Notes under the pieces: generated by a model
The model's input: only the letters and a program-made list of their open reading frames with translations
Database searches by the model: none
What the model was told of the DNA's origin: nothing
Shown here: positions 3,101 through 59,809 of the stretch, piece by piece
Numbering within the stretch: position 1 is the first letter of the stretch
Layout of the letters: every line of letters starts with the position of its first letter
From: Macrostomum lignano
Taxonomy: Eukaryota
Direction: 5' to 3'
Assembly (NCBI GenBank): GCA_002269645.1
Contig: NIVC01003031.1
Span: 60,347-124,346, forward strand
DNA: 64,000 nucleotides
Translations under genes and position numbers: made by a program

Positions 3101-3268
3101 TTTTCCTATAGTCCTATATTCCTATATTTTAAGGTAAAAATTGTCAAATCAATAATTTCCCTACATAGGGCTATGATATATCATGCCACATTCAATTATT
3201 AGGAGACTAGGGCAAGTAATAATCTCATGTAAGACCTACTCATGCTTAATGTTAGTGTCAGACAAGTC

Positions 3269-3563
3269 AGTAGTAGGGAAATGTACGCTTCTAGCCCCAG
3301 ACCCCCCTTTTTAAAAACAGCAATTTGGAAGGCTAGAGGGGGGACACGGGGGGAAACCAAAAAACACACTACAACACACTACAACACACTAAAACACCCC
3401 CAAAAACCCCAAAAACCCAAAATACTCCTAATAAACATAAAATATCAAAAACACTATTAACACACCCAATCACATCCAATCACACCCCCGTGTACCCCCT
3501 CTAAGCCTTCCAAACACCCATTTTTAATAGGCCTGATCTAGAAGCGTACATTTCCCTACTACT
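3269..3563. repeat. Left terminal palindrome: 26-bp perfect arms (3269-3294/3538-3563), a second imperfect arm pair, and a G-free A/C-rich loop
   Basis: agtagtagggaaatgtacgcttctag vs ctagaagcgtacatttccctactact; inner arms ~3310-3352 vs ~3484-3527; no G on the + strand from ~3354 to 3489. Confidence 0.9.
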
Positions 3564-3614
3564 ACACACAAACACTCTAGTAACCCGTTGCCCGCGCCGA
3601 AGGCGCGAAGGGTC
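3546..3614 (+). repeat. Polinton TIR segment (left), inverted partner of 21281-21349
   Basis: 69-bp inverted match with 7 mismatches by manual alignment; contains the hairpin GCGCC-GAA-GGCGC. Confidence 0.9.
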
Positions 3615-3983
3615 TGAAATGTTCGCGAACTATTGTTCCATTATAGAGAGAAAGGCAGAAACACAAATAGCGCCGATTTGTATAATTATACAGAAAAGCG
3701 CCAACCATAAAAGAAAAGCGCCATTCAAAAGAAAAGCTCCATTCTACCCCCTTCTATTGTGCCTCTAGTTCGTCTCTTTTTTCTGTTACTAAAAATAGTC
3801 TTTTTCATTCCATTCATGTGGGTTTGCGCAGCCATATATGACACCACTTACAAAGTTATAAATGAGATTTGTATGAAGCCTCATACAACTTTTTGCCAGC
3901 TCAATTTTGCAAAAAAAGTTACACGCAGGGTTACTCATATTGCGCTATAATTTCTCTTTTTCTGTTACTAAAAATAGACAAAA

Positions 3984-4385
3984 ATGACACACGTTACCCA
4001 ACTATCCAATTTGAATGAATTGCAAGTAGGAGACCCAATTGAATACCGAGGTGAGGGGCTTTTTGATGTGATAGGTTCAGCAGCAAATTTGGTTAAAGAT
4101 AATATGGGACTGATAGGACAAGCGGGCTCGGCAGCAGGTTCTATAACAAATGCGGTAAAGGGTGGAATAGAAGCGGCTAGGGCAGCGGAGGAACTTAAGA
4201 AATTGAGAGAATTTAACGACACCCTCTCACAAATAAAAGCAATAAAAGATTTAAAATTAGCACAAGAAGCCACACAAACTACTGAAACACCCACTAAAAG
4301 CAACCCAATAAGTAATAAAGATATCCAAGATTTTAATAAAGTATTAACTAACATTAAAGGCGGAAAAGGATTAAAGAAGTTTTAG
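3984..4385 (+). CDS. Polinton hypothetical protein, probable virion core/membrane-active precursor with GxG-hydrophobic motifs
   Basis: 133-aa intact ORF with RGEG-LF and KGGKG-LK motifs and an amphipathic Gly/Ala-rich segment; preceded by TAAAAATAGACAAAAATG. Confidence 0.65.
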   Translation: MTHVTQLSNLNELQVGDPIEYRGEGLFDVIGSAANLVKDNMGLIGQAGSAAGSITNAVKGGIEAARAAEELKKLREFNDTLSQIKAIKDLKLAQEATQTTETPTKSNPISNKDIQDFNKVLTNIKGGKGLKKF

Positions 4386-4395
4386 TAATATAAAA

Positions 4396-5417
4396 ATGGA
4401 CACAGTTAATGACAAACGCCTTTATTTTATAGGAGAAGTAGTCGACACTTTAAACTTGGATGATAATAAACACAGTCGCTCAATGTTAAAAAGATTAGAT
4501 CGTTTAGGTAAAAAATTAGATTATAATATTGATACTTTTAAACTTGCTGCAAAATATGCACAAGAAGGAAGACCACTTTCATTTAAGAATAATAATAAAA
4601 ATTATAGGCTAACGGAACCTGACGTGAAATTTTTATTGGAGACTCACACCAAAAAGGATGGTGGCCTGTTACCTATTGATGATTACCTATTGGTAGAATA
4701 GGCTATTCTACCAATTCTTTTAGGACTCGGGGCAGCTGGAGCAACCGGTTTAGCAGCCAAAAGAATTCACGATAATCGAAAACAGCTAGGAGAATTAAAA
4801 GCAAAACAAGGGGGTATATTGCCGCTTGCAACTTTGCTTCCAATAATTTTTGCAGGAATCGGAGCAGCTGGTGGAGTAGCAGGTGGAGCGGCTGGAATTG
4901 CAAAAGCAGTAAACGACAAAAAAGCCGCGGATGAAAAAGCTAAACGAGAGGCTGAATTCCAAAGACAGCAAATAACACAGGATGCTCAATTTAAACAAAA
5001 ACTTATTGATACCATTAATAGCAGCTCGGCAACAGCAGAACAAAAAAAAGAAATGCAGAAGCTAGGTTAGCAGCTGGAAAGGGTTTAATATTAAAAGGAA
5101 CAACTCACGGCGATGGCTTAATGCTACAAGGAACAACACATGGAAGCGGAGTTGTAGCGGATAAATTACATGAGTTTGGTCAAACCTTAGAAAAAACGGG
5201 TGAAAAAGCTAAAGGATTTTTTGATAATATTGGAGCCAATTTTAGGCCAGCAGTTCAAAAGATTTTTAATAAATTAGGAAAAGATTTTAACATAATTGAA
5301 AAACACGACGGAAGCGGTTTATATCTTGAAATGAGACCAAAAGCTGGATCAGGCATCTTCTTAAATGCAAATGTCTCAGGCAGCGGATTAATTTTACCAA
5401 AAGCGGAACTCGAGTAG
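4396..5417 (+). pseudogene. Adenovirus pX-like core precursor (about 340 aa), disrupted
   Basis: The three annotated ORFs join into one: in-frame TAG at 4699-4701 and a 1-nt frameshift near 5066. Contains KQGG-ILPLATLLPIIFAGIGAAGGVAGGAAGIA, resembling adenovirus pX (GG-xLPxLIPIIAAAIGA), and repeated GxG-L motifs. Confidence 0.7.
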
Positions 5418-5447
5418 GCAAACATTGTATAAATTTTATTCTATAAA

Positions 5448-8400
5448 ATGGAAGCTATTTTAGCCCAAATCGACAACCCAGAACTTAGAGCTCAATTAAT
5501 AGCTCAAATAGAAGCACAACGAATGGCCGATAGGGCGGAAATAGAAGCTAGAGTCAGAGCTGAAAATGAGATACGTTTAGAAAGACAATTAGATAATATA
5601 AACAACCCACAACAACCAACAGAAATTGGAGCTGAAGTAATAAATATAGATATCGAAATAAATACTGATTATAAAGAATATTTTAAACAAATGAAACCAA
5701 AATTAAAGACCATCCTAGATAGATATACTAAAAGATCAAATAACAAACGACAGCCAATTAAGTATAAAATAGAAATTGAAACAGAATTTAAAAAACCAAA
5801 TATGATTAATGCAAATTCAGAAATGGAGGTAATAAATAACTGTTCACAAGAATCATATAAGACACTTCTATCAATGGGAAATTACAACAATCAATTTGAT
5901 CAAATAGAAGCAGAGTTTGATGAATGGATAGATAAGATGACAGAAAACGGATCAGGGTTTGTATTTGTTTCTTGTAATTTTGCCACAGTAAAGATTGTCC
6001 CCATAGAAATTCTTAGAGGACGATCACACATGAATCTTTTCTTTAAATCACCAATGATTATAAATCCAGACAATAAAGATAATAAGTGTTTATTATAGTG
6101 TTTACTAATTCATAAATATCATAAAGAAGTAAAATCACATGTTAACAAAATATATAATTATAGAAAATATGAATATGAAATAATAATGAAAAACATATCA
6201 TACCCAGTAGCCATTGATGATATATATAAGATTGAAAAAATGAATGGATTAAATATTAATGTGTTTACAATGGAAAAGCCAGAAGAAATTCCAAGTGATC
6301 GGACGGAGTCCGCGACCCATCAGGTCGATAAAGATTGGTATAAAAAAGCTGTTATTTAGTAAAGCCAGCAACAGATATAACAGCACCAGATCAGATTGAC
6401 CTTTTGTACCTACAGCGTGGAAATGAAACACATTATATATACATAAAAGATATTAGTTCATTTTTAAGAGAAAATGGAAATCGAATGCCATTATGTAAAA
6501 ACTGTTTCACATTTAAAAGGGATGAAACAACTCTTAAAAATCATCAAAGATTTTGTTTAGATCATAAATTTACTAATGTTGTAATGCCAGATGAAAATGA
6601 AAAAATATTAAAGTTCCAACAGCATTATATGTCAATTAAAAAACCAATAGTAATATATGCTGATTTTGAATCAACCAACGTTCCACTCGAGTCCCCCAAA
6701 CAGCAGGACTGCACAAAAAAATTGGCGCAGCAGTTTCCGAATAGTTATTGTATATATGTTCATTCTGTAGCAGATCATATTTTTAAATCGAAGATAATTA
6801 CTTATCATGGAAGAGACTCTGCAAAACACATGGCGGAAACATTAGTAAAAATATTTGAACTTATACAATGTCAATATGATAAATTATCAAAAGATATTAT
6901 TATGACAGATAAGGATAGATACAATTATAAAAATGCAACAAATTGTTTTATGTGCAAAATGTATTTAAGTAAGAATAATAAGATACGAGAGCATTGTCAT
7001 CTAACAGGAATTTATCGTGGGGCAGCATGTAGATCATGTAACGCAAAAGAAGGAAAAGGATGTAAGGAAATACCAGTATTTTTTCATAATGGATCTGGCT
7101 ATGATTTTCATTTCCTTGTTCGAGAGTTACTAAATTTAGGTAAGGATGAATATGAAGTAAATATATTACCCAAAACATCAGAAAATTACATATCAATAAC
7201 ATATGGTAAAAAATATTCCCATCTGGTTTTTCTAGATTCCTTGAGATTCTTATCAACCTCTTTAGCGAATGTTGTATCATCACTAGTTCCAAACCCATGG
7301 GATTTAGAAACAATAAATAAAAACTTTCCAAATCTAATTAATAAACTCAAAAAAGAAAAACTATCCGAAGAAGAACTAAAACTATTAACTCGCAAGGGCA
7401 TTTATCCATATGAATATGTAACATCTGAAAAGGTATTTAATGATACTCAACTACCCCCAATAGAAAAGTTTTATTCAATATTATCACAATCAAACATTTC
7501 CGAATCGGATTATGAACATGCACAAAAAGTATGGAATTACTTTAATTGTAAAACATTTAAAGATTATCATAACCTATATCTTAAAGCAGACGTTCTCCTA
7601 TTAGCTGATGCTTTTGAAAACTTTAGAAATCATACATATGAGAATTTTAAAATTGATCCAGCCTATTGTTTCAGTGCACCCGGATTAACATGGGCATGCG
7701 GATTGAAACATACAGATGTAAAAATTGATTTACTAACTGATCATGATATGTTGTTAATGATTGAGCGTGGAATTCGTGGTGGATTCTCAGGGGTATTAGG
7801 AGATAGATATACTAAAGTAAATAATAAGTATCTACCTAATTATAATAAAAAAGAAAAATCATCATATGTATTATATCTAGATGCAAACAATTTATATGGA
7901 GGCTGTATGAAACAAAAATTACCAATTGCCGATTTCCAATGGGAAGACGACCCATATTACTATAAAAACATTCCCGAAGGAAGGGGATGCATAGTGGAAG
8001 TAGATTTAAAATATACTCGGCAAGCAAAAGCACAAACATATAAATATCCTTTAGCTCCAGAGCATTGTTCAGTTAATGAAGATGATTTATCACAAACACA
8101 AAAAGATTACCTAAAAGCAGATAATTCAAAACATCTATCAACAAAAAAGCTAATTCTAAATTTATTCGATAAGAAAAACTATGTAGTGCATTATAAGCTT
8201 CTACAATTTTATGAAAAGCAAGGACTAAAAGTAACCAAAGTACATCGAACAATATCATTTATAGAAGAAGATTGGTTAGCTAAATATATTGACTTCAATT
8301 CAAATCAGAGACAGATGGCAAAAACAAATTTTGAGAAAGATTATTGGAAATTAATGAACAATGCATTTTATGGAAAAACGGTGGAAAATATTAGAGATAA

Positions 8401-9414
8401 AACCCAATTCCATTTAGAAAAGGATATTGAAAAAGCAAAGAAATATTTTACCAAACCTAACTTTAAAGACTTTATAAAATTTGATGATGAATTTATGGGA
8501 ATACATATGCGCAATAAAACAACAAAATTTCTGAAACCAATCTTTATTGGAATGGTTGTTTTAGATTATGCAAAGCTAGTAATGTATGAATATTATTATG
8601 ATGTTATAAATAAAACATGGCCAGATAACTATCCAATATATGCAGACACCGACAGTTTGGTATTTAAGGTTGAAACTGAAGATCGGGCACAGCCCGCGAA
8701 CCTAAGGTTCGATGTCTATAAAGATATGGAAACAATTCAAGATACATTGGATACGTCCGATTATCCGGATAACCATCCTCTAAAATCAGATAAAAATAAG
8801 AAAGTTGTTCTTAAAATGAAAGATGAATTAAATAGCAAAATCATAACCGAGTTTATAGCAATAAGATCAAAATGTTATGCATTTAAGGTTTTAGGACAGG
8901 AGGGAGAGGTAAAAAAAATAAAAGGGGTATCAAGGGCAGCAGTTAAAAAGATAACTTTTGATGATTATAAAAATGTACTATTAGATTACCTTAATACAAT
9001 TGAAAAATATCATACTCCACAATATCGGTTAAATTCAGATAATCATCAGATGTTTGTTATTGAGACTGATAAAAAACATTAAGCCCATTTGATGATAAAA
9101 GGTATTTAGATAATAAAATTAAAACATATCCATATGGTTTAAAAGATGAGATAAAAAACATGATAAAAGATAAAAAACAAAAAGAAGATATAATAAGCAA
9201 ATATATAGAATACAAAGAGGTAATAAATAATTACTATTACAATTGTGATTGTGAATCCGAATGTGAATGTGAATATAATACATTTCTAGAATATGAAAAA
9301 GACATAGATAATTATTATGCAACATTTCCAAAAGAATTTAAAAAATTAAAAAAGGAACAAGTCTTGGATAACTGGAAGAGATTAACGGAAAAACTAATAA
9401 TGGTTAAAAACTAA
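5448..9414 (+). pseudogene. Protein-primed family B DNA polymerase (vOTU-like N-terminal region, exonuclease with endonuclease VII-like insert, polymerase), disrupted
   Basis: Exo motifs YADFES and FHNGSGYDFH; polymerase motifs YLDANNLYG, KLMNNAFYGK, YADTDS; CxxC..EHCHLTGxYRGAACxxCN insert. Lesions: TAG at 6096-6098 in NKDNKCLL*C (Trp expected), frameshift in the A-run 6342-6347, frameshift in the A-run 9071-9076, after which KTLSPFDDKRYL continues in frame into the 9160-9414 ORF. Confidence 0.95.
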
Positions 9415-9750
9415 AGCATGTAATTCCTTAAGTAGAATATCCAATTCCAATTCATATTTTATAGAACACCAATTATCTTCGCAATCGTCAGGATAACTTA
9501 AACACTCTTTTACTTTTTTTCGAAGTTTTTTTATTCGTCTAACAAGCCAATCGATTTTGTTTTCAATAACAGTTTCAGCATAAGCAATTGTGGCTTTTAT
9601 AAAACTTTTTCTTTTTTCTAATTCATATCGAATCGGAAACATTTCTTCGCCATAATCACTATATTTCTGCTCAATAATTATATCTAATTTTTTATTAATA
9701 TTATTTAATTCTTTATTATATGCACACAGACGGGTTTTTATAGGCGCCAT
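9394..9750 (-). CDS. Polinton hypothetical protein (118 aa, helical/coiled)
   Basis: Intact ORF with TAAGAAAATG start context, tightly packed between neighbours; no recognisable family. Confidence 0.6.
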   Translation of the reverse strand: MAPIKTRLCAYNKELNNINKKLDIIIEQKYSDYGEEMFPIRYELEKRKSFIKATIAYAETVIENKIDWLVRRIKKLRKKVKECLSYPDDCEDNWCSIKYELELDILLKELHALVFNHY

Positions 9751-9771
9751 TTTCTTATAAAAAAATTTAAC

Positions 9772-10107
9772 TTATTCAGACTCGTCCTCCCAAACAGCAG
9801 CCAATTTTACAGTCCTGTCAACCTTTTTGTTTTTTGCTTGTCTTTCTTTAAACTGCAAACCATCCATTGGTGAGTATTTCATAATAAAAGTTTTAGGTTT
9901 ATTTATAATAATCGTTGGAAAATTTTTAACGTCATCGCCACTTAAGCACAGAACAACTCCCCCATTTAATTGTAAAAATATCGATTGAATTCCAATAAAT
10001 TTAACCTGTCGCAAACATATTATATCATACTCCTTTGGCTCCAGAGAATTGGTGGTTAGAAAGTTAATTGTATTAGAATCGGTTTTGAACCAATTTTCTT
10101 TTTCCAT
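9772..10107 (-). CDS. Polinton hypothetical protein (111 aa)
   Basis: Intact ORF with TAAAAATG start; no recognisable family. Confidence 0.6.
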   Translation of the reverse strand: MEKENWFKTDSNTINFLTTNSLEPKEYDIICLRQVKFIGIQSIFLQLNGGVVLCLSGDDVKNFPTIIINKPKTFIMKYSPMDGLQFKERQAKNKKVDRTVKLAAVWEDESE

Positions 10108-10133
10108 TTTTAATCTAAAAAAATAATAAAAAA

Positions 10134-10677
10134 ATGAAAGACAGATACGAATGTAAAAAATGTAATGTTACTATGCAAAGAGGTCAAACAGCAAATGGAG
10201 ATATATATCATATGTGTTATTCGTGCGCTAAGATATATCAATTTGAAAAAACAAAAAAAGATTGAAAACTTATATTACTATTTCAAAAACACAATTATAA
10301 AAAATTTATCATGTGACATTTCACATCCATCCCTTCAAAAGCCAGACGGTACACAAATTAATACCATCCCCGGAAATAATGTTTATTTAAATAATAACTT
10401 TTTTCATTTAAATAAAGGAAAAGGATTAAGTTCGAAAGACTCCGAGAGGATTTTAACTCTGGTTGGATATTATTTCAATTTTCTTATGAGAGAGAACACA
10501 AAACATATAAGGTTGGGTAACATACCAAGTGAAATGTTATTGAAGAAGTCATTGGAATTTTTATGTATTGATAAAAAATTTGAACCGCGAATCAAAAGGC
10601 AATTACCATTGTGGGAAGAATATATAATATATGCATTAAAAAAGCTACACCGGATAAAGTCCGATTGTGCTACCTGA
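10134..10677 (+). pseudogene. Hypothetical protein with N-terminal CxxC...CxxC zinc ribbon, frameshifted
   Basis: MKDRYECKKC...HMCYSCAK from ATG 10134 shifts at an A-run near 10253-10259 into the annotated 10165-10677 frame. Confidence 0.55.
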
Positions 10678-11305
10678 CCTCGGGCTTTGTGCCCCAGTTT
10701 CTATAGTTTCTATAGGTGGAGGGTTCGGTTTTTCACCCCGAAAGCTCGCACTCATAGGCCGGTTGAGTCTTAATTCGTTTAATTCTGTATCGGTAAAAGC
10801 TTCAATATCTAAAATTCGATTTCTATCTTTTAAATACTTATCATATAACTCAACCGCGGTTGTTAACTCATGTATTGTAATCTCACCATCATCTAATATT
10901 TTTGCACATATAAGTATAACTGATTTTTATATTGTTTAGCAACATCTCTTAGTGATTTATATTTATTCTTTCTTTTTTAAGATATAATTTAATTACCAAA
11001 AGTATTGATAAGTTTCTTATTAATTCAAAACCTGATATTGAACCAATTGAAATACCCAAAAATAATTGAGATAAATTAAGAGTTGGAATGGATTGTAAAA
11101 TACCTAAAACGATTACACACAACATCGATAAACTTCCAAAACCAATATTGAAAAAATCCATATTCCTGATATGGTTTGAAAGCCTTCTTACTTTTTTAGT
11201 ATATAAATCATAATCATAATTTATTCGATCGACATTACTTAACATGCGTCCTTTACGTTGGTTAAATAAATCTCTTTCCTTTCTGTCCGCTTCAGACACC
11301 GACAT
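10645..11305 (-). pseudogene. Predicted two-transmembrane protein, frameshifted
   Basis: ORF 10949-11305 has two hydrophobic segments. An alternative frame near 10960 continues KSLRDVAKQY...KILDDGEITIHEL to a stop at 10645-10647. Confidence 0.5.
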
Positions 11306-11615
11306 TTTCGTCTATTTTTAATAGCACCAAAATGAATTCCCCACGCTCCTTAGGAATCTGTCCGGCGCTCAATAAGTATTGGATTGGAGTTATTCTTTCT
11401 TTTTTCTCCCGTTTAAAGCCAACCTTCCAAAACTCCTGTAATATAATATGGTTTTTTAATAATTTAATTAACTCCTGAAGTTTCTTATTGTCTTGAACAT
11501 TCACTCCGCTAAATAAAATTTTGGTATGAGATCTAAAAGTTTTTATATTTGATTCTTGTTTAAGAATAACAATAGTATTGCTTTGTCGCATTGATGGAGT
11601 TCTACTAAAAGCCAT
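11292..11615 (-). CDS. Polinton hypothetical protein (107 aa)
   Basis: Intact ORF with TATAAAATG start, overlapping the next gene by 14 nt. Confidence 0.55.
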   Translation of the reverse strand: MAFSRTPSMRQSNTIVILKQESNIKTFRSHTKILFSGVNVQDNKKLQELIKLLKNHIILQEFWKVGFKREKKERITPIQYLLSAGQIPKERGEFILVLLKIDENVGV

Positions 11616-11641
11616 TTTATATAGAAATATTTTAGACTAAC

Positions 11642-13703
11642 TTATATTGCTACAGGTGGCCTTTCCAAATAAGGAGTAGATGGAAAATTATAACCAAATG
11701 ATGTACTACCACAAACTATTGCTCCACGAATAAAATGTGCCGCATCTGCTCCTCCGGTTTGAGCACCAAGGTCCAAACCCCATAAGAGTTTCGGATTTAT
11801 CTAGATCTCCCCAAGTTCCACTATCATACGTAAAAACATTTTGCCCAATTAGTGTCAAAGAATCTCCTGCAACATTGTATGAGCTTAACTGATACCAAAC
11901 TCTTTGATTAAGAATATTAATTTCAAAAAGATGCCAATCGCTATTATCAATATTGGCATAGGTTACAGTTTGGTCGGCGTCATTTAGAACGTCATTGCGG
12001 ACGGTTGCTCCGTCAGCTTTTTTATTACTCTTTTTTTAAAGCAAGCCGAATCTGTCATGCCATTCACTAGCAAACACTATTAAGCCGGCGTCGGTTGTTA
12101 AACCAGATCCATTTTCCGTTGTTGGTCGTTGGTGGCAGTAAGCATAAAACCAAACGGCGTCTGCACCAGCTCCACCACTAGCAGCATTAGCAACTCGGAA
12201 ATAGAAGGAGGCAGAAACATTACGGAAATGGGTGAAATTAAATTGTAAAGCTCCATTGAGTCCAGAGCCTTCGTCAGTAATTCTTGCACCGTTTTGATAA
12301 TCAATATAAATCGCATTTCCAACCATAGACCCAGTTGGAAAAATATCACCAGCAGCTGTTGGGTTTTGATAGCCATTCCAATTACATATTACTGGCTCAT
12401 ATAAAGCGGCATCAATTGCCGGAATACCATCCAATTTAATTTTATCATTAAAAGACATTCTACCGTCCGCCGTTTGTGTTACAACCGTATCAACATAACC
12501 TTTAGTCACAACAGAAGTATTATCGTTTATAGTTGAGATATTAGTAATTGTATTACCACCCATGTCAATAGACTGATTTACTGCTCCTAAATTCAAATCA
12601 ATAACGGTAAAGGTCTGTCTGTAAATCTGAAATGTTGATAAGCCTGGATTGGTTGAACCCGATGTTGATGTAAGACAAAACAATCTGAAATATGAATATT
12701 CTTTATCAAAATTTTGTGTGACATTAAATGTTTGGGTTGAATTATTTAACTCCACCGAACTCGTTGCCGGAATCAAAACATCATAACTTGTATTGTCATT
12801 ACTTCCTTCAAATCGCCATGAAGCAGGGTGCTCGGTTGAGGGTGATGGTCTACCACGCAAATCAATTTTATAACACATTATCGCGGATGGACATTGGACT
12901 TGAATCCAGTAATCTGTTTGTGTTGCATTAGTTGCCCAATCCGTTGCGTCATCCCCATCAAAAGCTTTCCAACTTGCAAAGCTGGTTGTATTAAATGCCG
13001 TGCTTGCTGTAATCGCAAAACCACTACCACTCCAAGCAGCCATTGTTGGTACATGTCCAGGTTCAACAGTTTGGAACCTATCTTGTTTTGGGGCTCCGCC
13101 CCCAACTAAATTATCAACCTCTGTTTTGGTATAAGAATCGGTTATATTACATTTCAAATTTAATGAATTATCTATTTCAGTTTTGTTATAAGAATCCGCG
13201 ATATTCCGTTTCAAATTTAATGAGTTATCTATTTCAGTTTTGTTATAAGAATCGGTTATATCTCTTTTTAAATTTAAGGAGTTATCTATTTCAGTTTTGT
13301 TATAAGAATCGGTTATGTCTCTTTTTAAATTTAATGAATTATCTATTTCCGTTTTTGTATATGAATCCGCGACATTCCGTTTTAAATTAAGTTCGGAATC
13401 AACTTCGGCTTGACTATAAGAATCTAATATATTACGTTTTAAATTTAATGAATTATCTATTTCCGTCTTGCTATATGAATCCGCAGTATTGCGTTTTAAA
13501 TTTAATGAATTATCAATTTGAGTTTTGGTATAGGAATCTGCAACATTCCGTTTTAAATTTAATTTAGTATAAACTTCACTTTTTTTATAACCTTCGTCTT
13601 CATTTATATATCTGTTATCTGCAAAGGAAACATTAATGCCAGTTGATTCTCCACCGCCAGTTCTTGAAGTTCCATTCCATGAGGGTGTTCCACTAAATAA
13701 CAT
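11642..13703 (-). pseudogene. Putative virion fibre/receptor-binding protein: 19-aa shaft repeats, F5/8-type-C (discoidin)-like domain, legume-lectin-like domain
   Basis: About 7 repeats of KR(N/D)IxDSYxKTEIDNSLNL; KAFDGDxxTxW...WxFEGSND motif; IDMGGNTITN...TKGYVD; SASFYF..GADAVWF and GAQTGG..H motifs. In-frame TAA at 12036-12038 and a frameshift near 11770 extend the ORF to 11642. Confidence 0.75.
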
Positions 13704-13726
13704 TTTTAGAGTCTATTTTTACCATA

Positions 13727-14161
13727 TTAAAATGAATCCAATATGTTTTTAAAATCCTCTGGGGTATTGTTCGAGTTGTTTATTTTATATAAAAAATACA
13801 ACGCCGCCTGTCCGCAATAACTTTTATCAAAGGTTTGAAACTGTTCGTGATAATCTCCACATAATCGATTTTTAGTATGGTTAAATTTGTCTTTTATTTC
13901 CTGCAATGGAGGAAGGGCATATGAATCAAAAAAAGAAACAAGTTTGGGTTTTGAATAAACTGCTGACCAATGTACACCATTTTCTTTTGTCGTTTCAATA
14001 TTTACAATAAAGGATCCATATTTTGGTAAGTCTTTTATCTCATCGCGCATAACACATCTGAATGGTTTTATTTTTAATTGTCTCGCCCAGTTTGTTAATT
14101 CAATATTACTTGTTGTGTCCATTCCATATCTTTGTTTGAACTGGTTCCAGCTCATAGTCAT
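13727..14161 (-). CDS. Adenain-like cysteine maturation protease
   Basis: GVHW, FFDSY and Q-x5-CG catalytic motifs in Polinton/adenovirus protease order; intact. Confidence 0.93.
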   Translation of the reverse strand: MTMSWNQFKQRYGMDTTSNIELTNWARQLKIKPFRCVMRDEIKDLPKYGSFIVNIETTKENGVHWSAVYSKPKLVSFFDSYALPPLQEIKDKFNHTKNRLCGDYHEQFQTFDKSYCGQAALYFLYKINNSNNTPEDFKNILDSF

Positions 14162-14340
14162 TTTATGCTCCTGAAAAACTCTTTGTTTTTGTTAGTTTCT
14201 TATCTGTAGGTTTTAATAGTTCCTGTCTGGTTTTAACAGCTTGTAAATGTTTCAATTTTGTTAGTTCGATTTCATAATTATCTTTTGCTTTTTGAACTTT
14301 TACCATTTGTTTTTTTATATTATTACCCATTTTTAAGATT

Positions 14341-15126
14341 CTAAACCTGTTTTATTCTTAAAATTACTGTTATTGCTTGTCCACCAAAACTAATAAGTCG
14401 ATCCGAATCATTTACAACTCTTATATAAATTGATTGTAAATTATATTGATTTAAAGGATAATAAATTGGGGTTTGGGGTGCAACTATCATTTTATCTCCA
14501 ATTGGCACGGCTAGAAATGGAATTGAATAAATAATTCCGCGCTGAACTAAAAATCCATTATCATCTGTTATATAACCACCATTTGAAATATCGGTTGTAA
14601 TATTAATTGTGTTGACTCCGCCTTCAATGTTTCCCACGGTATCGCCCGTGGTTGATGCGGTAACGATTCGGGAGTTAAATCCCAGTATGGTTCTAAGTGA
14701 ATTTGCAACTGTAAAATCGACCTGATATCCGGCTGCTAACGTAAGTGTGAATCTGCCTGATGGTAAATCAACTCATATAACAATCGCGTCTGCTACCCAA
14801 TCACCATTATCTGTTAACTCAGCTTGTATTACAGTATTCAAATCAGTATAGTTATATGCGCCCGGTGTTATAGTAATGGTTGTCCAATTTGCTCCTGAAT
14901 CTTTAGAATATCTAAATTGATTATTTGTTGCATTAATCAATTGAGGCATGTTAAAAACTGAAAACATTATTAAACCAATTTCATAACTTAATGTCTGATC
15001 AAGAGTTAGTGGGTTACGTAATTGAATCCTTTGCTTGCTGCTTGTCATTACAAATTGTAAAGTCGTACTAAATCTTGCGTTGGTTCTATCAACCACTTGT
15101 TTAAGAACATCTAAATTAGAGGCCAT
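14341..15126 (-). pseudogene. Minor capsid protein (penton, single jelly-roll)
   Basis: ORFs 14773-15126 and 14341-14637 share a frame and are linked by open sequence after one TGA (14773-14775). ITPGAYN and C-terminal YYPL..SIYIRVVN..RLISFGG..ITVILRIK patterns are typical of Polinton pentons. Confidence 0.85.
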
Positions 15127-15141
15127 TTTTATAGTGGGAAT

Positions 15142-15908
15142 TTATTCGTCCTCTTCCTCATCCTCCTGTATCAAATTTTGTAAAATTCTATGTTTCCTTT
15201 CTAACCTAGGATTGATATATATGTGTTTGTATTGGCTATCATCCCAAATTTTTTTACACGTACTTTTGAATGGTTTTGTATCTAAACCGGGGTTAAATCT
15301 CGCATGTATATTTTGTAAATCATAGTTATCTAGATCAAACATTACGCAACAGCTAGCATTCTTTTTTATAATTGAATCTAATTCTCTAAAGGATTGAGTA
15401 AGATAAAATGCACCAATTCCATCTCCTCTACCACTAACAAAAATTTCTTTTTGCAATTCTTGATCGCCATCATTAATACAATCGTCAAATACAATTAATG
15501 TTTTATCGTCTTTTGGAATTTGATCATAGTGTAATCGTGTTGATATTTTAAACGTTGGGGAGTTGTTGTCGACGTTTTCTGGATTCTGCGCAGTTTCTCT
15601 ACATAAACCCTCAATGTCAGAAAGTTTGAATTTTGGTTCATCGTCGTCCTCATATTGCTCATATGCTCTTAACATTCTAAACATGATATCTTTTTTTAAT
15701 TTATTTTTTAATCCATGTTTAAGAAATTCATAATATTTTATTCTTGGTTTGTTTGTATATATTATTAAATTATTATAATCTAACATTCCGTTGGTTGTTA
15801 ATTTAACATTGTTAATGTTAATGTTGTTTTTCCTTTACCTGATCCTCCAATCACTAAACAAAGAAAAGGGTCATTTGGAAATATTTTATTATGTTTTGGC
15901 TTTACCAT
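15142..15908 (-). pseudogene. A32/FtsK-like genome packaging ATPase, frameshifted
   Basis: Upstream frame MVKPKHNKIFPNDPFLCLVIGGSGKGKT (Walker A) shifts near 15800 into the annotated ORF with LIVFDDC (Walker B), GRGDGI and LTQSF. Confidence 0.92.
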
Positions 15909-15927
15909 TTTTAAGGATATAATTTAA

Positions 15928-17409
15928 CTAATTTTTTCCTATAGGGGCTTCCTGAACAACGGTGCCGTCGGCTTTAGCAATCGCCATATACTCCTCTAGA
16001 ATCAATGCGTGGGCGTCCACTGCCTGATTTCCGGTTTTATTAATCTCCAATATATAATTCAAACCAACATTTGATGTATTTTCTTTCTGTGCGGTTAGAT
16101 CAAAAACAACCACGGGGTGAATGTTTAGAAACTCTGTGGGAGTATATTGAGGAATGGCGTAGGCTTCGTTTTTGACGTAATCCTGATAATATTTTATAAA
16201 ATCATTAACATCATTATTTCCAACATTTAGATTAAGGGAGTCTTTAACAGGATAATATTGTTGATCAACCTGCAGTCGGATGTTCTGAAGATTAAATGCG
16301 TTAATTGCCGAAAGAGCGTTGTCACTTGCGGTGGCTGCTTGAGCTGCTACATCACCAGATTGAAGCCAATATAAATCACCATTGGCTCTTTTGCTACTTC
16401 TGTTTGTTATTTTAAACCAAACAAATACATACCTCACCCGACAATTTGTTGGTAAGATTTGCCAAAGGAATGAATCCTGATTATTATTAATGGTTCACAT
16501 AAAGTGGCGGCGATTTAAATAAAATATATCCTGGTCTTACATTATCTGATCATTAATATGTTTTAAAAGCGGAGCAGTTACCTCGATAGTTGGCACAACT
16601 AATTGAATCGAAACAATTCGAACTGCAATATCGGTTGAGGTTGAACTTCCAAAAAGTATCCTGGGCTGATATCCACCAGATATTTGCAGCTGTACCCCAA
16701 ATTTTAATCCCTTCCATACCCGATTTGGTGAGATAAACCCAAATAGCGGAAAGATTGAAAAGTCTTGCTCATAAGCGGTTGCGGTAGTTAAAACCGCGAC
16801 TGGGAATTTATTCTGACGATCTATAAAGCCGGTGTTCATATTTTTAGTGTTGGCTAGATCCGTTACAACCGGAACTATATTATTATTTAAATAATTAATA
16901 AGAGCTGCGGTGTCTGCGCCAGCTGCTGGTGTTATTTGGGGAAAAGTCCATGCTCTACCATCTCCCTTATCAGGCATCCATCCAACGCTGTCACCAACCT
17001 GTTTTGATAAATATGTATAATTTAAATGTTTCAAAACTCCATTAATCTCTGCTGGGTTTGTAGACGTCTCAACCGCGGCTCCGTTAATGGATAGTTGTGC
17101 TTGGGAAAAACATTTATAAAGCCAATCATTTTCTATAATAATACCAGCGCGGTCGGCGATATCGGGGGCTGTAAGGGCTGTTCCATCGTTTCTGGTATAC
17201 AACCACCTAACGCGGAAAAACGCATGTTTCATATCCAATATGCTGCTGGTTGCGCCAACGTCAAAATTTACAGCTCCCGTTGTAAAGTTATTTGAATTAT
17301 CGCTTGTTGGTTGGGTATAATTTAAATCTCTTGATCTGACCTCATTAATATACTGTCGGTGTTTTTTGAAATGAAATTTATCACTCCAAATGGTTTTTGT
17401 CTCGGCCAT
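15928..17409 (-). pseudogene. Major capsid protein (double jelly-roll)
   Basis: The two annotated ORFs are in the same frame, separated by TAA (16537-16539) and TGA (16495-16497); about 493 codons, beta-rich, ending ..PVVVFDLT.. as in Polinton MCPs; adjacent to ATPase and penton. Confidence 0.88.
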
Positions 17410-17425
17410 TTTTATAGGTTAAAAA

Positions 17426-18151
17426 ATGAGTCAATTTATGGACGTTGATGGAGAGTTGGCGATTTATAAAGAAAAGCAAAGATATTCCGATTTTGTTAGA
17501 GATTTACAAAAAAAACTGGGAATTCAGTTAGCTGGCGAAAAATTTGCTGCTCCTTTTGTTAATCCTATTGTTGGGAAATTAGGAGAAATAGAAAAGAAAT
17601 AAATATTTGATAACATCAAAAGTGGTTTATTTAGTAAAACCGATTTTATGAATTTATTGGGGAAAACAAATAAAAAAATTGATGATTTGTTTGATTCTGT
17701 AAAAAAGAATGAAGTTAGTTTGGAGGAATTTAAAAAAGAAATTTCTAAACCAGCTAATGTTTTAGAGGAAGAGATTGACACCGAGGGTAGTAAAAGTTTT
17801 TTCGATAGTTATTTAAAAGATGGTGTTCCTAAATCAATACTCGTTGAAAATGAGACCGAGAGTAATATTACAATTGGTGGTAAAAATTTTGATATAAAAA
17901 AATTAAAAGATGAATTAGGAAAAGATGCATTCTATATTATAACACACCCAACTGAGAATCCGTCTAAAGTAGATCGATATACTAAAGAAGATATTAGGAA
18001 AGCTAGAGAGTTTATTGAAAATAAATTGGATACTAGAGCAAAAACTACCAAAATATATAATGAATTAAAAAGAGCTGTTGGAGATGGTTTAAAAACTCCG
18101 CGAAAACTTGTTTTAGCTGCTGCCAAAGCTGCGGGGCATACTGGAGTTTAA
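17426..18151 (+). pseudogene. Polinton hypothetical protein with an internal stop
   Basis: ATG 17426 is in frame with ORF 17648-18151; TAA at 17600-17602. Confidence 0.55.
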
Positions 18152-18174
18152 TTGTTAAATTTGTTTTTTATAAA

Positions 18175-18744
18175 ATGGAAACTAATAAGATTTGTACTAA
18201 GTGTGGTGAAGAGAAACCAATGACTAAAGAATTTTTTATTTGGAGAAATGATTCAAAAAAATTTAGAAATGATTGTCGATTATGTCATAATATTAGTTGT
18301 AGTTTATGGATAAAAAACAATAAAGATAAATGGAATAAATATCGTAGAAACAAATACCAAAATGATGATAATTACAAACTTATTGGATTAATTAGAAATA
18401 GAATAAAAAATCAATTAACCATTTTTAATGATCGGGATCATATTTTCTATCTTGATTGCACTAAAGAATTCTTTATTGATTGGATAAACTTCACAAAACA
18501 TTATTATGTCCCAAAAGATTATACTGGTGTGTTACATGTTGATCATTTTATTCCCGCTTCTTCATATGATTATAGAAATGAAGAAAAAATTAAAAAGTCT
18601 GAGCAATGGAGAAATAAAAGGTACTTATCTGCAGCAGATAATATTTCAAAAAAGGTTAAACAACCAACTATTGAAGAATTAGCAAAACAATTAGTGCTAA
18701 GTTGTATTTTTATGGTTATTAAAAATGAACCAACTTGTGTTTGA
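18175..18744 (+). CDS. HNH-family endonuclease with N-terminal CxxC/CxxC zinc finger (NCLDV-like)
   Basis: CTKC...CRLC, then LHVDHFIPASSYD...WRNKRYLSAADNISK, matching the DHxIP...N...L...N HNH pattern. Confidence 0.75.
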   Translation: METNKICTKCGEEKPMTKEFFIWRNDSKKFRNDCRLCHNISCSLWIKNNKDKWNKYRRNKYQNDDNYKLIGLIRNRIKNQLTIFNDRDHIFYLDCTKEFFIDWINFTKHYYVPKDYTGVLHVDHFIPASSYDYRNEEKIKKSEQWRNKRYLSAADNISKKVKQPTIEELAKQLVLSCIFMVIKNEPTCV

Positions 18745-19996
18745 AGGTGGATTATTGGATGTTCAGAAAGGATTAACAAGCTTACCGCCTATCTTTACTA
18801 CTGGGCGGTATACGAATGAATTACATATTCCAGGTTATTCCTATGCAGGTCCCGGGACTCGGTTGGATTTAAGGTTAAATCCTGATGACACTCCAAAATC
18901 AGATTCGATTCCCATTAACGGTATTGATTGGTTAGCATATTATCATGACTTAGCATACAGAGATGCTGATAAGAACTCTCCTGAGGAAGCATTGAGATTA
19001 AAGCATGAAGCCGATAGAAAAATGATTGAAGGATTAGATAATTTACAGGGGTTGTCGGTAAGCCAAAGATTAACTCGGTGGATGGTTAAAAAGATTTTGC
19101 AGTCTAAAGTTAAATTTGGTTTAGGAATTAATTACAACCAGCATGGAAATAATTGTGTAGAATGTTTGTTATTAAGTGGTGGTGGGTTAAGTTATGATGA
19201 GGCAAAGATTCTTCACAAAGAATACCGAAAACCGAAATTTTATCGAAAGATCATGAACTTTAAAAAGAATGAAATTTGGTATGCTGATTTAATGGCAATG
19301 CCGTCCGATTGGGGATATAAATATATTTTAACTGTATTAGATGGTTTTACTCGATATGCGTGGGCTGTTCCTTTGAAATTCAAAAAAGGAGAGGAGGTTG
19401 CTTCTGCTTTTAGAAGTATTGGAGAAAAAAGTGAACGTTTATGTGTTGATGAAGGAAAGGAATTTTACAATCCACATATGTATAGATTATATCATTTTGA
19501 AAAAGGAAAAGAAAGGATAAAGGGCGCAAATGGTGAGTATATTAATAAAATTTATTCTATTTATGGCGAAAGCAAAAACGCACTGATTGAAAGATTTAAT
19601 CGAACTTTAGGTAAGAAATTATGGTTTCAGTTTAGTCTTAATGGTAACCAAAAGTGGGTAAAAATATTACCAGACGTAGTGAAAGATTATAATAATTCAT
19701 TTCATTCGGCTATAAATATGACTCCACAACACGCTTATAACAATCCTGAAAAAGTTAAAGTTACTTTTGGAGAATTCGAAAAAAAGAAAACTAAACCTTT
19801 TAAAGTTGGTGATTCTGTTTATGTCTATAAATGGAAAGATAAGTTTGAAAAGGGAAGAAAAGGATATTGGAAAATAAGTGAGAAATTTACTGTTAGTAAA
19901 GTTTTAAATACAAATCCTACAACCTATATCATTGCTGATAAAGATGGTGAAGAAATATTGGGTTCGTTTTATGAGAACCAATTAATGTTAGTTTAA
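18725..19996 (+). CDS. Parvovirus-type phospholipase A2 fused to retroviral-like (rve) integrase
   Basis: N-terminal PGYSYAGPG...D.LAYYHDLAY (Ca-binding loop plus catalytic HD). C-terminal WYADL / VDEGKEF / IERFNRTL (D,D,E). One uninterrupted 423-aa frame. Confidence 0.92.
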   Translation: MNQLVFEGGLLDVQKGLTSLPPIFTTGRYTNELHIPGYSYAGPGTRLDLRLNPDDTPKSDSIPINGIDWLAYYHDLAYRDADKNSPEEALRLKHEADRKMIEGLDNLQGLSVSQRLTRWMVKKILQSKVKFGLGINYNQHGNNCVECLLLSGGGLSYDEAKILHKEYRKPKFYRKIMNFKKNEIWYADLMAMPSDWGYKYILTVLDGFTRYAWAVPLKFKKGEEVASAFRSIGEKSERLCVDEGKEFYNPHMYRLYHFEKGKERIKGANGEYINKIYSIYGESKNALIERFNRTLGKKLWFQFSLNGNQKWVKILPDVVKDYNNSFHSAINMTPQHAYNNPEKVKVTFGEFEKKKTKPFKVGDSVYVYKWKDKFEKGRKGYWKISEKFTVSKVLNTNPTTYIIADKDGEEILGSFYENQLMLV

Positions 19997-20404
19997 TTTT
20001 TTATCTTCTGTTAATAAAGTTTTTGAAGCTAATTTTTTTTTAAATATTCATATCATTAATTGCAAGTTTATTTTTTAATTCTTCATCTGTTAACATATTT
20101 TTTAATGGTTTATAATCTGACTATTTGAAAGTTTCAGTTATTTCTTCAAGATTGTTATGAATAAAAAAGATATAAAAATCTAGATTATGTCTTTGTTCAT
20201 TATTATTCAAATATTCACTAATATGAACTTCTATGGCTTTGTTATGTTTTTTGGGAATTCGTTTTTTAGATCTTTAATTTCATCTGTGGTTAATGGGTAT
20301 ATTTTTACTCCTCGAATTTCTACGTATTTTATTAAGCCATTTATTATCATATTTTTTATATCTACAACCTTATCAAAGAGATAATTGGGTAGATCTTGTT
20401 TATT

Positions 20405-20734
20405 TTATGGGGGTAATTGATCTGTGATAATAGTTTTTATTGGAGTAGAATATTCTTTATATTTAAGATTAAGATCAATCTTAAATCTCGTTGGATAATG
20501 ATTTGATTGTGTAGGTAGTTGATAATTATTCAAATATGTAACCAAAGCAATAACATCATCTTTAAGATGACGACCAAAATTTACAATAGTGTTTTTAATT
20601 TTATATAGTAGTTGCTTAATTTCAGATGGTTTTAATGGATATATTTTTTCTCCTTCTAATAGTACAATTTTTAATAAACCATCATTTATCTTCTGTTTTA
20701 GATCTTTTAACCTTTGATCAATTTCTGATTCCAT
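20405..20734 (-). CDS. Hypothetical protein, member of a local paralogue family
   Basis: 109-aa ORF with TAAAAATG start; LKQKINDGLLKIV..KIYPL motif shared with neighbours. Confidence 0.6.
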   Translation of the reverse strand: MESEIDQRLKDLKQKINDGLLKIVLLEGEKIYPLKPSEIKQLLYKIKNTIVNFGRHLKDDVIALVTYLNNYQLPTQSNHYPTRFKIDLNLKYKEYSTPIKTIITDQLPP

Positions 20735-20946
20735 TTTTATGGATAAATTTTAAATAATACTTACTTGAGGCAACAAGGTAATAAATTTTTTTATAACAAA
20801 CAAAAGCAATATTATTATTATTATAGTTACTAATATCATTATCAACAATTGTTCAACTGTAACAAGACTTAAATTTTCTTTAAGTTCATTAATTGGCACG
20901 TTTCCTATGTAAGAATAATTTATGTTCATTTTTTAAGTTATATTTT

Positions 20947-21261
20947 TCACATAAAAATTTCGTTTTCATTATCCGATTCACTAGTTTCATAAGAACTATT
21001 TGTTGATTCAGAATCTGTTGACCTAACCTCCCAATCCTCGGAATTTAAATAATCTCCAAGTTGAAATATTAACTCACCCTCTTGTTCTAAATCATACAGC
21101 CCATCCAACTCTAACGGATAAAGTTTTAGTTCGCTTCCGTCGTCATATTTTAAATAAACTTCATCAATTATTCCATTCAATATGTGCTGTTTTATTATCT
21201 CTGCATTTTTAGTAACAGTCTCAAAAGTATCGCTTACTGAAAAGTTGTAAACTCGGTTCAT
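20947..21261 (-). CDS. Hypothetical acidic protein, member of the same paralogue family
   Basis: 104-aa ORF with IKQHILNGIIDEV..KLYPL; the start lies within TTTTCTGTTACTAAAAATG. Confidence 0.6.
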   Translation of the reverse strand: MNRVYNFSVSDTFETVTKNAEIIKQHILNGIIDEVYLKYDDGSELKLYPLELDGLYDLEQEGELIFQLGDYLNSEDWEVRSTDSESTNSSYETSESDNENEIFM

Positions 21262-21280
21262 TTTTAGTAACAGAAAAAAA

Positions 21281-21349
21281 GACCCTTCGCGCCTGCGGCG
21301 TGGGCGACGGGTTATAAGTGTGTTTGTGTGTAGTAATAGGGAAATGTAC
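21281..21349 (-). repeat. Polinton TIR segment (right); homology stops abruptly at 21349
   Basis: gacccttcgcgcctgcggcg...gtagtaatagggaaatgtac is the reverse complement of 3546-3614. Confidence 0.9.
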
Positions 21350-37419: not shown

Positions 37420-37990
37420 AAGCATCCCCCAGATAGCAAGCATTTTCCAGATAGCAAGCATCCCTCAAATAGCAAGCATCCCCCAGATAGCAAGCATCCC
37501 CCAGATAGCAAGCATCCCCCAGATAGCAAGCATCCCCCAGATAGCAAACATCCCCCAGATAGCAAGCATTCCCCAGATAGCAAGCATTCCCCAGATAGCA
37601 AACATTCCCCAGATAGCAAGCATTCCCCAGATAGCAAGCATCCCTCAGATAGCAAGCATACCCCAAATAGCAAGCATCCCTCAGATAGCAAGCATCCCTC
37701 AGATAGCAAGCATCCCCCAGATAGCAAGCATCACTCAGATAGCAAGCATCCCTCAGATAGCAAGCATCCACCAGATAGCAAGCATCCCCAGATAGCAAGC
37801 ATCACTCAGATAGCAAGCATCCCTCAGATAGCAAGCATCCACCAGATAGCAAGCATCCCTCAGATAGCAAGCATCCCCAAATTGCAAGCATCGCCCAGAT
37901 AGCAAGCATCCCCCAGAAAGCAAGCATCCTCCAAATAGCAAGCATCCCCCAGATAGATAGCATCCCCAAATAGCAACCATCCACCAGACA
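37420..37990. repeat. 18-bp minisatellite (agatagcaagcatccccc)n; related arrays at 23610-23861, 27211-27560 and 41540-41640
   Basis: 6-residue periodicity (DSKHPP / GDACYL) in the ORF track. Confidence 0.95.
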
Positions 37991-38084
37991 ATAAGTAGCT
38001 AGAGCGACAATTTCCTTAGCTTTATAGTGGCTCCTTTAAATTGGCATGGCGCTTTATACCTTTACATTTGGAATTGTATATCTT

Positions 38085-40795: not shown

Positions 40796-40852
40796 TTGAT
40801 GTTTAGCAGTTTTGTTGTGTTTTTAAGGTGTTTTAATAAAAAAAATATTTTT

Positions 40853-40919
40853 GCACTACTGAGATTCGAACCCAGGTCGCTACATTAGCATTCCAGTCTG
40901 TTCGCATCAGGGCTATCTC
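40853..40919 (-). ncRNA. tRNA-like Pol III segment (second copy)
   Basis: Nearly identical to 47318-47384; B box GGTTCGAATC followed by a T8 run. Confidence 0.55.
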
Positions 40920-41724
40920 TTTTCAATTGGAGAACATGAATTGTGGCCCTTATAATTCAATTCTTACAGCAAGTCAATTGGAGTAAAAAGTTATGACATA
41001 ATCAATTTCTCAGTCAGCCAGTATCAGTCTCAATTTAAGTTAGCAATATGGTTACGCAATTTCAATCAAGTCGTGTGTGCATTTCTTCGGCACTGTTTTC
41101 AACTTGTTGTGATGCAATCTTTAGCACAATCGGAATTCAGTCAGTCAGTTTTTTCTCTAGCATTCTTACAATGCATTTCAAGTCGAAAATTTGGCTTGAC
41201 CTTTGCAAAAAAGCATGTTTATCGAATATTTAATCCCTTTAACATTGAGCAATTTCTTAGCCAGGATGCATGTACCGTGCCAGGAAAATTTCTGATCAAA
41301 TGGTGCAAGTTTGAAGAAAATCGGTTGAGCCAATTTTTCTGAAATCTATCGCATACCGACAGACAACTCATTTTTAGTATATAGGACTAGCAATCTTCGC
41401 CCCCCGATGGGGGACATCTGGATAGAATCTCTGTTCTCTACACGGATCAAAAACACATCCAAATAAAGCCTTCACAAAGACAATATACAAACTGCTCAAA
41501 TGAAGAGCAATGCGAAAAGAAAACATCCCAAGACAGCATGCAAGCATCCCCCCCAGATAGCAAGCACCCCCAGATAGCAAGCACCCCCCCCCATAGCAAG
41601 CATCCAATTGATAGCAAGCATCCACCAGACAATAAGTATCTAGTGCAACAATTTTCTTAGCTTTATGGTGGCTTCTTTATGATTGGCATGACGCTTCTTT
41701 TTACGTTTGTAATTGTCTCTTTTA

Positions 41725-54764: not shown

Positions 54765-54774
54765 TAATTTCTTG

Positions 54775-59400: not shown

Positions 59401-59708
59401 TCTGACCTGCTGCGCGGGCGGCGACTTCGACTGGCTGGCCACGTCATCCGGTCGGAGGCCCGCTGTCCTGAGCCGCTACACGACGTGCTGCTGCTCAAGC
59501 TGCAGGGACCGCGGAGGCGAGACCAAGGGCGAACGGTGCGATACCCTGACCGACTTCTGAGTGACGCTGGCGCCCCGGACCAAGCAGGGGGATGCGACTT
59601 CCTGAGGGCAATGGCCCAGAGACGCGCTTTCTGACTGCTCCCCCCTTTCTGGCTACTGCGTGGCCGGCGGGAGCAGTACCTTGTTGTTGTTGTTGTTGTT
59701 GTTGTTGT
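56406..59708 (+). mobile_element. Full-length RTE-clade non-LTR retrotransposon (3.3 kb)
   Basis: 10-bp TSD ATGTATACGT (56396-56405, 59709-59718), (TTG)9 tail, 9-bp 3' stem, single EN-RT coding region. Confidence 0.92.
56455..59634 (+). pseudogene. APE endonuclease-reverse transcriptase ORF with two frameshifts
   Basis: IATFNCRTL, LQE, GDLNA, LDHIL, SDH (APE); RGISL, QNGFR, FIDFLKAFDS, GVLQGDTLAP, YADD (RT). Frameshifts near 57428 and 57993. Confidence 0.93.
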
Positions 59709-59809
59709 ATGTATACGTGCATAAATTCAAGTTTATGCACATGTATCAAGCAGTACGCGACTGACTGTATAAACTAGTCGTACTGAACTGGAGCCATGCC
59801 TCAGATGCT

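Follow-up and report, generated by a model that had tools for sequence, protein, structure and literature searches.

The fusion gene lies in a decayed Polinton/Maverick

In the window (the whole stretch of DNA analysed, 64,000 nucleotides long), terminal inverted repeats enclose an element of about 18 kb. Close to its right end, an open reading frame joins a phospholipase A2 (PLA2) to an integrase (Table 1). Several Polinton hallmarks are present: inverted repeats at the ends, a size in the 15-20 kb range, dispersal in many copies (more than 100 in this genome) and a retrovirus-like DDE integrase. The element is a decayed Polinton/Maverick in an animal genome; that the host is an animal follows from 86 matches to Wnt, obtained exon by exon. 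Polintons make a six-base target duplication, and the right end of the window copy is truncated. In the window copy, interruptions affect the genes for polymerase, capsid, penton, ATPase and core protein; the fusion, the protease and the nuclease gene upstream of the fusion are open.

Table 1. Features of the element in the window. A slash within a motif marks a predicted cut.
Feature	Position	Strand	Remarks
Left terminal inverted repeat	3266..3615	.	67-72% match to sister-copy ends
Putative core protein gene, rich in Gly motifs, broken	4396..5417	+	Stop near 4700, frameshift near 5050
Type B DNA polymerase gene (presumed) with inserted endonuclease VII domain, broken	5448..9414	+	Stop near 6098, frameshifts near 6345 and 9075
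Putative adenain-type maturation protease, open frame	13727..14161	-	His, Asp, Gln, Cys motif order
Putative penton and A32-like packaging ATPase genes, both interrupted	14344..15908	-	Penton label tentative
Putative major capsid gene, with a stop here	15937..17409	-	490 aa in sisters; named from size and place
Free-standing HNH/endonuclease-VII-like gene, overlapping the fusion start	18175..18744	+	phrog_1035, E 4.3e-9
PLA2-integrase fusion ORF, intron-less allele	18725..19996	+	423 aa, open throughout
G8-G9-L10, candidate GG/X site before PLA2	18746..18754	+	pLDDT < 50 at residues 1-15
Parvovirus-type PLA2 domain	18752..19117	+	Ca loop Y40-x-G42-P43-G44, H74-D75, Y78, D97
GGNCC word from the Gly42-Pro43 codons	18848..18852	+	Sister intron sits between 18850 and 18851
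G132-L133-G134, candidate GX/G site at PLA2 end	19118..19126	+	G132 in 40/40
G152-G153-G154 (G152-x-G154), second candidate linker site	19178..19186	+	Lineage-specific
DDE integrase without C-terminal chromodomain	19193..19993	+	D188, D242, E289
Right terminal inverted repeat, 70 bases left	21280..21349	.	90% complementary to 3546-3615; sisters run about 280 bases further

Several of the gene labels rest on motifs or on position, because the family libraries gave no match. The frame that we take, from its polymerase motifs, to encode a type B polymerase is a single frame of 1319-1324 aa in two sisters, and Pfam matched only its inserted endonuclease VII domain (PF02945). Likewise, the putative protease is presumably of the adenain type, going by the order of its motifs; it had no family match in Pfam, PHROGs or NCBIfam. 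Pfam gave no capsid family match for the putative major capsid gene, and the Pox_A32 match of the ATPase gene (E 0.016) was under the cut-off. The core-like gene encodes 319-328 aa, is open in three sister copies and holds nine GxG or GG-hydrophobic motifs over its three frames. A first-pass annotation of this DNA had called this module pX-like and placed it apart from the PLA2, and it is indeed a gene of its own in these three sisters.

A fibre-like gene, in which short repeats occur together with an F5/8 type C domain, fills the slot at 12036-13703 (minus strand), which differs strongly among sisters. Elsewhere in the window a 23-base repeat is arrayed about 354 times (37900-47000), and 520-base perfect inverted repeats (53687-62739) flank GC-rich frames at 56455-59634, which from their motifs we presume to be endonuclease- and reverse-transcriptase-like.

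A PLA2 and an integrase are joined in one frame

The 423-codon frame contains zero internal stops. Its residues 32-110 matched Phospholip_A2_4 (PF08398) with an E value of 5.5e-8 (33.4 bits, cut-off 23.9), and it has a YxGxG calcium loop, an HDxxY motif and a downstream Asp, as expected of a parvovirus-type PLA2. The Pfam matches to rve at residues 180-247 (E 1.8e-6, 28.6 bits, cut-off 32.6) and to rve_3 at residues 284-332 (E 0.04) were both under their cut-offs, and no chromo match was found in the integrase part. A structure model built from a 40-row alignment (mean pLDDT 80.7) shows two folded parts, with pLDDT below 50 at residues 1-15 and 133-154, and the solved folds that it matches best are those of retroviral integrases (E 1.4e-14 for the foamy virus intasome). 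The earlier reading of a PLA2 that precedes a DDE integrase in a single intact frame thus holds: the frame is free of stops, and it carries a Pfam PLA2 domain and a retroviral-integrase fold. The gene is an intact fusion of two catalytically complete domains, conserved over a wide clade. From its sequence, the PLA2 part is predicted to act as a phospholipase in entry.

The fusion recurs among sister copies and more distant homologs

Among the 120 homologs listed, of 168 found, 42 contain both Pfam domains; when our own profiles were used instead of Pfam, a PLA2 part and an integrase were seen in 55 of these 120. The alignment comprised the query and 39 homologs picked for having both domains (33-74% identity), and in all 40 proteins H74, D75, Y78, D97, G132, D188, D242 and E289 are invariant. 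In the host genome we collected 90 loci, which after removal of five duplicates represent 85 distinct places. The 140 codons from residue 43 on, which span the PLA2, the linker and the start of the integrase, are open in 71 of these 85 copies. In the others the first stop lies outside the linker (12 copies) or within it (two copies, both read out of frame). The dN/dS of the linker in the host copies is 0.076.

We also examined 108 external loci, 17 of which have a PLA2 part. It is in the frame of the integrase in eight of them, adjacent in another frame in six, and apart in three. The adjacent arrangement in different frames (L101, L129, L134, L139, L142 and L150) could reflect separate genes, decay, sequencing error or a programmed frameshift. 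Taken together, the sequences support the fusion as a conserved, though not universal, trait of the family.

Conserved glycine motifs flank the PLA2

All three glycine motifs named in the first-pass annotation are present (Table 1). GG or GxG occurs no more than five residues before aa 12 in 28 of the 35 proteins with a leader, and 36 of the 40 aligned proteins have such a motif at residue 132. As background, such motifs were counted in 8 of 10169 five-residue windows of the integrase part, a lenient and biased control because this part is folded. The third motif, G152-x-G154, was found in only three of the 40 proteins; among the 71 open linkers of the host copies it reads GGG in 41, GSG in 29 and GG in one, so that the middle residue varies and the glycines stay. 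In the structure model the helix 112-131 stops just before G132, and PLA2 domains that are not fused likewise terminate in the GxG that follows the PLA2 here. For these two reasons, this GxG may be structural.

According to the available part of a mavirus study (PMC6048507), the mavirus protease cuts at GG/X and GX/G, and mavirus virions contain the integrase and a hydrolase cleaved around GK/G. An adomavirus core protein with adenain motifs is apparently cleaved in virions as well (10.1101/341131, accessible text). Since the glycine motifs are conserved, predicted to be disordered and similar to the mavirus protease sites, cleavage of the fusion at these motifs by the element's own protease is likely by analogy. 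The first-pass proposal that the flanking motifs are protease sites stands best for the first two, which are conserved, fit the mavirus rule and fall within or right beside segments of low model confidence that are probably disordered; it fares worse for the third, with its narrow distribution, and G132 is perhaps a helix cap. Under the GX/G rule the cuts in both GxG motifs would precede the second glycine, one residue earlier than had been drawn.

We think it likely that the precursor would be packed into the particle and matured at GG/L10 and GL/G134 (here also at GG/G154). Maturation would free the PLA2 for endosomal escape and leave an integrase that travels with the DNA, as occurs in mavirus with separate proteins. 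The annotation had gone further: both enzymes would be delivered in fixed stoichiometry, and the fusion would answer how an integrating dsDNA virus loads its integrase. The data lend no support to a fixed stoichiometry, nor to a need for the fusion in loading: in the accessible mavirus text the integrase and the predicted hydrolase are packed as separate gene products, and a fusion is therefore not needed for integrase loading.

Two other explanations of the fusion were weighed. It could be specific to the window copy, created when the stop codon that separated two adjacent genes was lost, and the six of 17 external loci in which the domains adjoin in different frames would suit such an origin. 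The probability of this is negligible, as the check for a stop or restart near 19135-19190, proposed with the original annotation, disclosed no in-frame linker stop in the sister copies, the linker dN/dS is low, and the search for PLA2+rve fusions elsewhere, also proposed there, returned the 42 fused proteins among the 120 listed homologs. For the host family we rejected it, the frame being open across the linker in 71 of the 85 copies. A different view is that the fusion works uncut, with the glycines capping a helix and providing a flexible tether, while the PLA2 serves as a handle of the integrase for packaging or membrane contact. The place of G132 directly behind the helix, the occurrence of the motif in unfused PLA2 genes, the scarcity of the third motif and the adenovirus P4 position, which holds Lys and not Met, Ile or Leu (adenain motif from the available text of 10.1101/341131), all agree with it. 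We nevertheless judge it unlikely, because GG is kept right before the PLA2 despite unrelated leaders, because both glycines of the GxG stay while the residue between them varies, and because the mavirus sites are defined, in the part of PMC6048507 that could be consulted, as GG/X and GX/G. Packaging followed by cleavage is thus the reading that we retain.

Most sister copies carry a predicted group I intron in the calcium loop

At the boundary of codons 42 and 43 (between 18850 and 18851), 82 of the 85 host copies contain a group I intron or its remnant. The window copy is one of the three that do not; the other two are 99% and 90% identical. The insert, of about 300-335 bases, follows the Gly42 codon. 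Of 40 scored genomic matches, 37 align only from nt 127-132 on, and genome-wide we counted 106 exon-2 starts versus three uninterrupted junctions. Since the copies are related and have recombined, these counts are not independent events.

The structural elements were named by eye on 17 aligned inserts, with a slid alignment as control. The group I pairing holds in 99.7% of 629 cells, compared with 33-45% in the slid controls. Both sides have changed in 15 of the 37 pairs, which counts as few events because much of this covariation separates the two variants of the intron, type A (58 copies) and type B (24 copies); P2 and P3 also covary within type A. P1 has a U-G pair at the 5' splice site in all 17 inserts, P3 and P7 are 100% paired (7 of 13 pairs changed on both sides), the guanosine-binding G-C pair is present in 17/17, and P4-P5abc folds in 17/17. 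The predicted structure shows the insert to be a group I intron with P1, P2, P2.1, P3, P4-P5abc, P6, P7 and P8, in two core variants. A spliceosomal intron was rejected, as the insert lacks an initial GT and has the fold of a group I core.

The last base of type A introns is A in 39 of the 58 copies, G in 16 and unclear in three. The P9.0 strand is perfect in all 39 A-ending copies versus 8 of the 16 G-ending ones. In type B (L006, L008, L018, L020 and L061-L084) P2 and P5abc are as in type A, and the core is different and fully paired. Behind type B introns the sequence does not encode Pro-Gly in frame as it usually does, yet 22 of the 24 copies retain the catalytic residues of the PLA2. Many copies have palindromic inserts of about 30 bases in intron loops and gene ends (L022:1156-1512; ends of the upstream nuclease gene, e.g., in L007, L012 and L021). 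Contigs of presumed-RNA runs show more such inserts at other loop positions, as well as additional versions of the intron (including L034:1507-1585) that differ at the 5' end and have inserts as long as 255 bases; these probably represent other subfamilies.

Searches with Rfam returned no RF00028 match in 11 intron-bearing loci of the host genome and no intron family in 13 loci and positions 1-30000 of the window; weak miRNA, sRNA and snoRNA matches were taken as chance. A viral contig from IMG/VR (L091) encodes a fusion that is 36% identical and has a related insert at the same codon, which ends in G and passes RF00028 (52 bits, cut-off 50, E 3.5e-12). This is the only intron among the 17 external PLA2 loci. 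A DNA pattern search for external introns retrieved the same contig and one chance match in a phage gene, and a protein scan retrieved that contig only. Within the window and eight sister elements, no other intron of this kind was found beyond the PLA2 site. Two homologs (P0004 and P0031) open with a peptide corresponding to the 3' end of type A in translation, and the first residue of two others (P0034 and P0035) is exactly the Pro; being protein sequences alone, they serve as hints only. P0004, apparently an intron-split fusion, and P0165, a homolog of the Eco47II-like protein described below, are both on 4853-base ENA contigs, perhaps one and the same.

In a tree of exon 2 (74 rows) the intron-less copies fall in two places, and the window copy stands beside two A-ending intron carriers with full support. 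As judged from this tree, its intron-less state fits either a precise loss or recombination.

Selection on both exons suggests splicing

No exon-exon joint was found in the contigs of five presumed-RNA runs (and two DNA runs), a material that may hold DNA and drop rare forms. The presumed-RNA contigs show intron-exon continuity, and one of 457 bases spans the intron into exon 2. In the 54 intron carriers whose two exons are both open, exon 1 has a dN/dS of 0.28 and aa 45-99, which lie before the first internal in-frame Met (aa 100), have one of 0.078. The A-ending copies alone gave 0.22 and 0.078. Part of this low dN/dS may predate the gain of the intron. Because both exons are under purifying selection, we infer that the intron would splice in vivo, and regard this as quite likely. 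An A-ending group I intron is documented in an anemone mitochondrial gene, with a ligated mRNA stated in the accessible part of that report (PMC8146996).

The insertion-site word is avoided throughout the element

Between 3546 and 21349, GGNCC was observed twice versus 16.5 expected, which makes it the most depleted of 64 palindromic words, and one of the two occurrences is the uninterrupted junction. The observed and expected numbers in the flanks are 4 vs 5.4, 10 vs 18 and 54 vs 61. Six intron-bearing sisters have 0-1 GGNCC words, and the two other intron-less copies have two and four. L091 has none (5.5 expected), and there too the word ranks first in depletion; in ten other external loci it ranks 6th to 63rd, and in none first. 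TCNNNGA (25 vs 49.5 expected), CTNAG and CCNGG are also under-represented in 3546-21349, possibly as traces of other nucleases.

The gene directly upstream of the fusion is HNH-like in 65 of 82 copies and Eco47II-like in 17. The assignment of the latter comes from matches to PF09553 that are under the cut-off (E 7.8e-5 and 2.4e-4); an NCBIfam search of the nuclease gave nothing useful, and a single-sequence structure model was discarded (pLDDT 36). We take GGNCC to be the word recognised by Eco47II. All 17 copies with the Eco47II-like gene contain the intron, compared with 62 of the 65 with the HNH-like gene, a difference that is consistent but not significant because the intron-less copies, all of them with the HNH-like gene, number only three. 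In the partial contig L091 this slot holds a GIY-YIG gene. A free-standing nuclease gene next to an ORF-less intron is the arrangement of collaborative homing.

We slightly favour a scheme in which the intron would persist by breaking the sole GGNCC word that the Gly-Pro codons force upon the gene. It would shield its carriers from the Eco47II-like nuclease of some copies, and be spread by it. The window copy would be a target of this nuclease, since it has the HNH-like gene instead and a bare GGNCC site.

Each of these two steps has its competitor. The introns may be real group I relics that are mostly dead or poorly spliced, with the carriers making a shortened protein from an internal Met or riding on a few intron-less copies. 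The terminal A of most type A introns, the ambiguous 3' end of type B, the purely unspliced contigs of the five presumed-RNA runs and the Met at aa 100 would all follow. Against it stand the compensatory changes within the intron family, the purifying selection upstream of Met100, which is seen also in the A-ending copies, the perfect P9.0 strand in every A-ending copy when only half of the G-ending ones keep it, the anemone precedent (PMC8146996, as far as available) and the mere three intron-less copies, and we consider dead introns improbable. As to the spread of the intron, the neighbouring HNH-like (or GIY-YIG) gene could act through a long homing site, or recombination alone could suffice, GGNCC being avoided for some other cause. 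This accords with the prevalence of the HNH-like gene, the GIY-YIG gene of L091, the larger divergence of exon 1 than of exon 2 between copies (79-90% vs 90-94%) and the scatter of intron state and nuclease type over the tree. It sits poorly with the HNH-like gene of the three intron-less copies themselves and with the fact that the depleted word is the word of the insertion site (and that of Eco47II). We see it as a less probable, still serious competitor to protection of the GGNCC site.

Implications

On balance, we find it probable that the fusion product is packed and cut by the element's own protease, and that the window copy is a rare allele without the predicted self-splicing intron that splits codons 42 and 43 in most sisters. 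A more far-reaching picture is put forward tentatively. This Polinton clade might deliver its entry enzyme and its integrase as one protease-matured precursor, the gene of which would be guarded in the animal lineage by a functional, often A-ending, group I ribozyme that conceals the only unavoidable GGNCC from the restriction-like nuclease of rival copies. The intron would then be the immunity half of a methylation-free restriction system, found at the same codon down to 36% protein identity.

As summarised in the available part of a 2024 review (PMC10964413), the only animals with group I introns are some non-bilaterian lineages and five sharks, and nuclear ones occur in rRNA genes only. Both rules would be extended by an intron that is present, in more than 100 copies, in a protein gene of a provirus in animal nuclear DNA. 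It would also supply ribozymes with a naturally altered catalytic core, presumably functional in animal cells. With the fusion, the maturation and delivery of a Polinton integrase become testable on two small natural proteins, and the intron-less allele of the window is a natural control substrate for both protease and nuclease.

Comparison with known systems

In the accessible texts of PMC8502044, PMC5803895, PMC3671162 and 10.64898/2026.06.19.733378, the PLA2 of Polintons is PLA2X or CAP and is not joined to an integrase. Alpha adintovirus PLA2X (PMC8502044) and Sf Maverick CAP (PMC5803895) resemble the gene in the window in that a parvovirus-VP1-type PLA2 occurs in an animal Polinton and is proposed to be a virion entry protein. 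They differ in that their PLA2, as described in the parts available, is joined to a pX-like domain or forms an ORF of its own, whereas in the window it is joined to the integrase and the putative core gene lies apart; where PLA2X has a C-terminal pX-like domain, the C-terminal part here is the integrase. The integrase in the window has no chromodomain, which PMC11071296 gives as typical in the text available. Mavirus, to the extent covered by the accessible text of PMC6048507, has a related protease with GG/X and GX/G sites and carries both its integrase (MV02) and its hydrolase (MV13, in two fragments around GK/G) in the virion. However, mavirus is a protist virophage, its integrase and hydrolase are separate genes, and the latter is a predicted alpha/beta hydrolase and not a PLA2.

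Integrated Polinton-like viruses of protists have, in protein genes, group I introns of about 300-380 bases that contain no ORF (PMC12220804). In the part of that report available these are restricted to three protist groups and in Rhodomonas lie in a short gene before the capsid gene. The intron described here, in contrast, lies in an animal nuclear genome and in a PLA2 calcium loop, and has an altered P7 and mostly a terminal A. The available texts of 10.1101/2023.08.22.554363, PMC11296320 and PMC11071296 mention neither the fusion nor group I introns in animal Polintons, and no published report of either was found in the open literature as far as accessible; supplementary gene tables (e.g., of PMC8502044) may list such fusions. 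By analogy with collaborative homing in phages (PMC3984707, available part), the nuclease and the intron would work alike here. Unlike the phage case, the candidate is a restriction-enzyme-like cutter of a five-base word, with predicted cutting, and it is accompanied by element-wide avoidance of that word in a eukaryotic virus.
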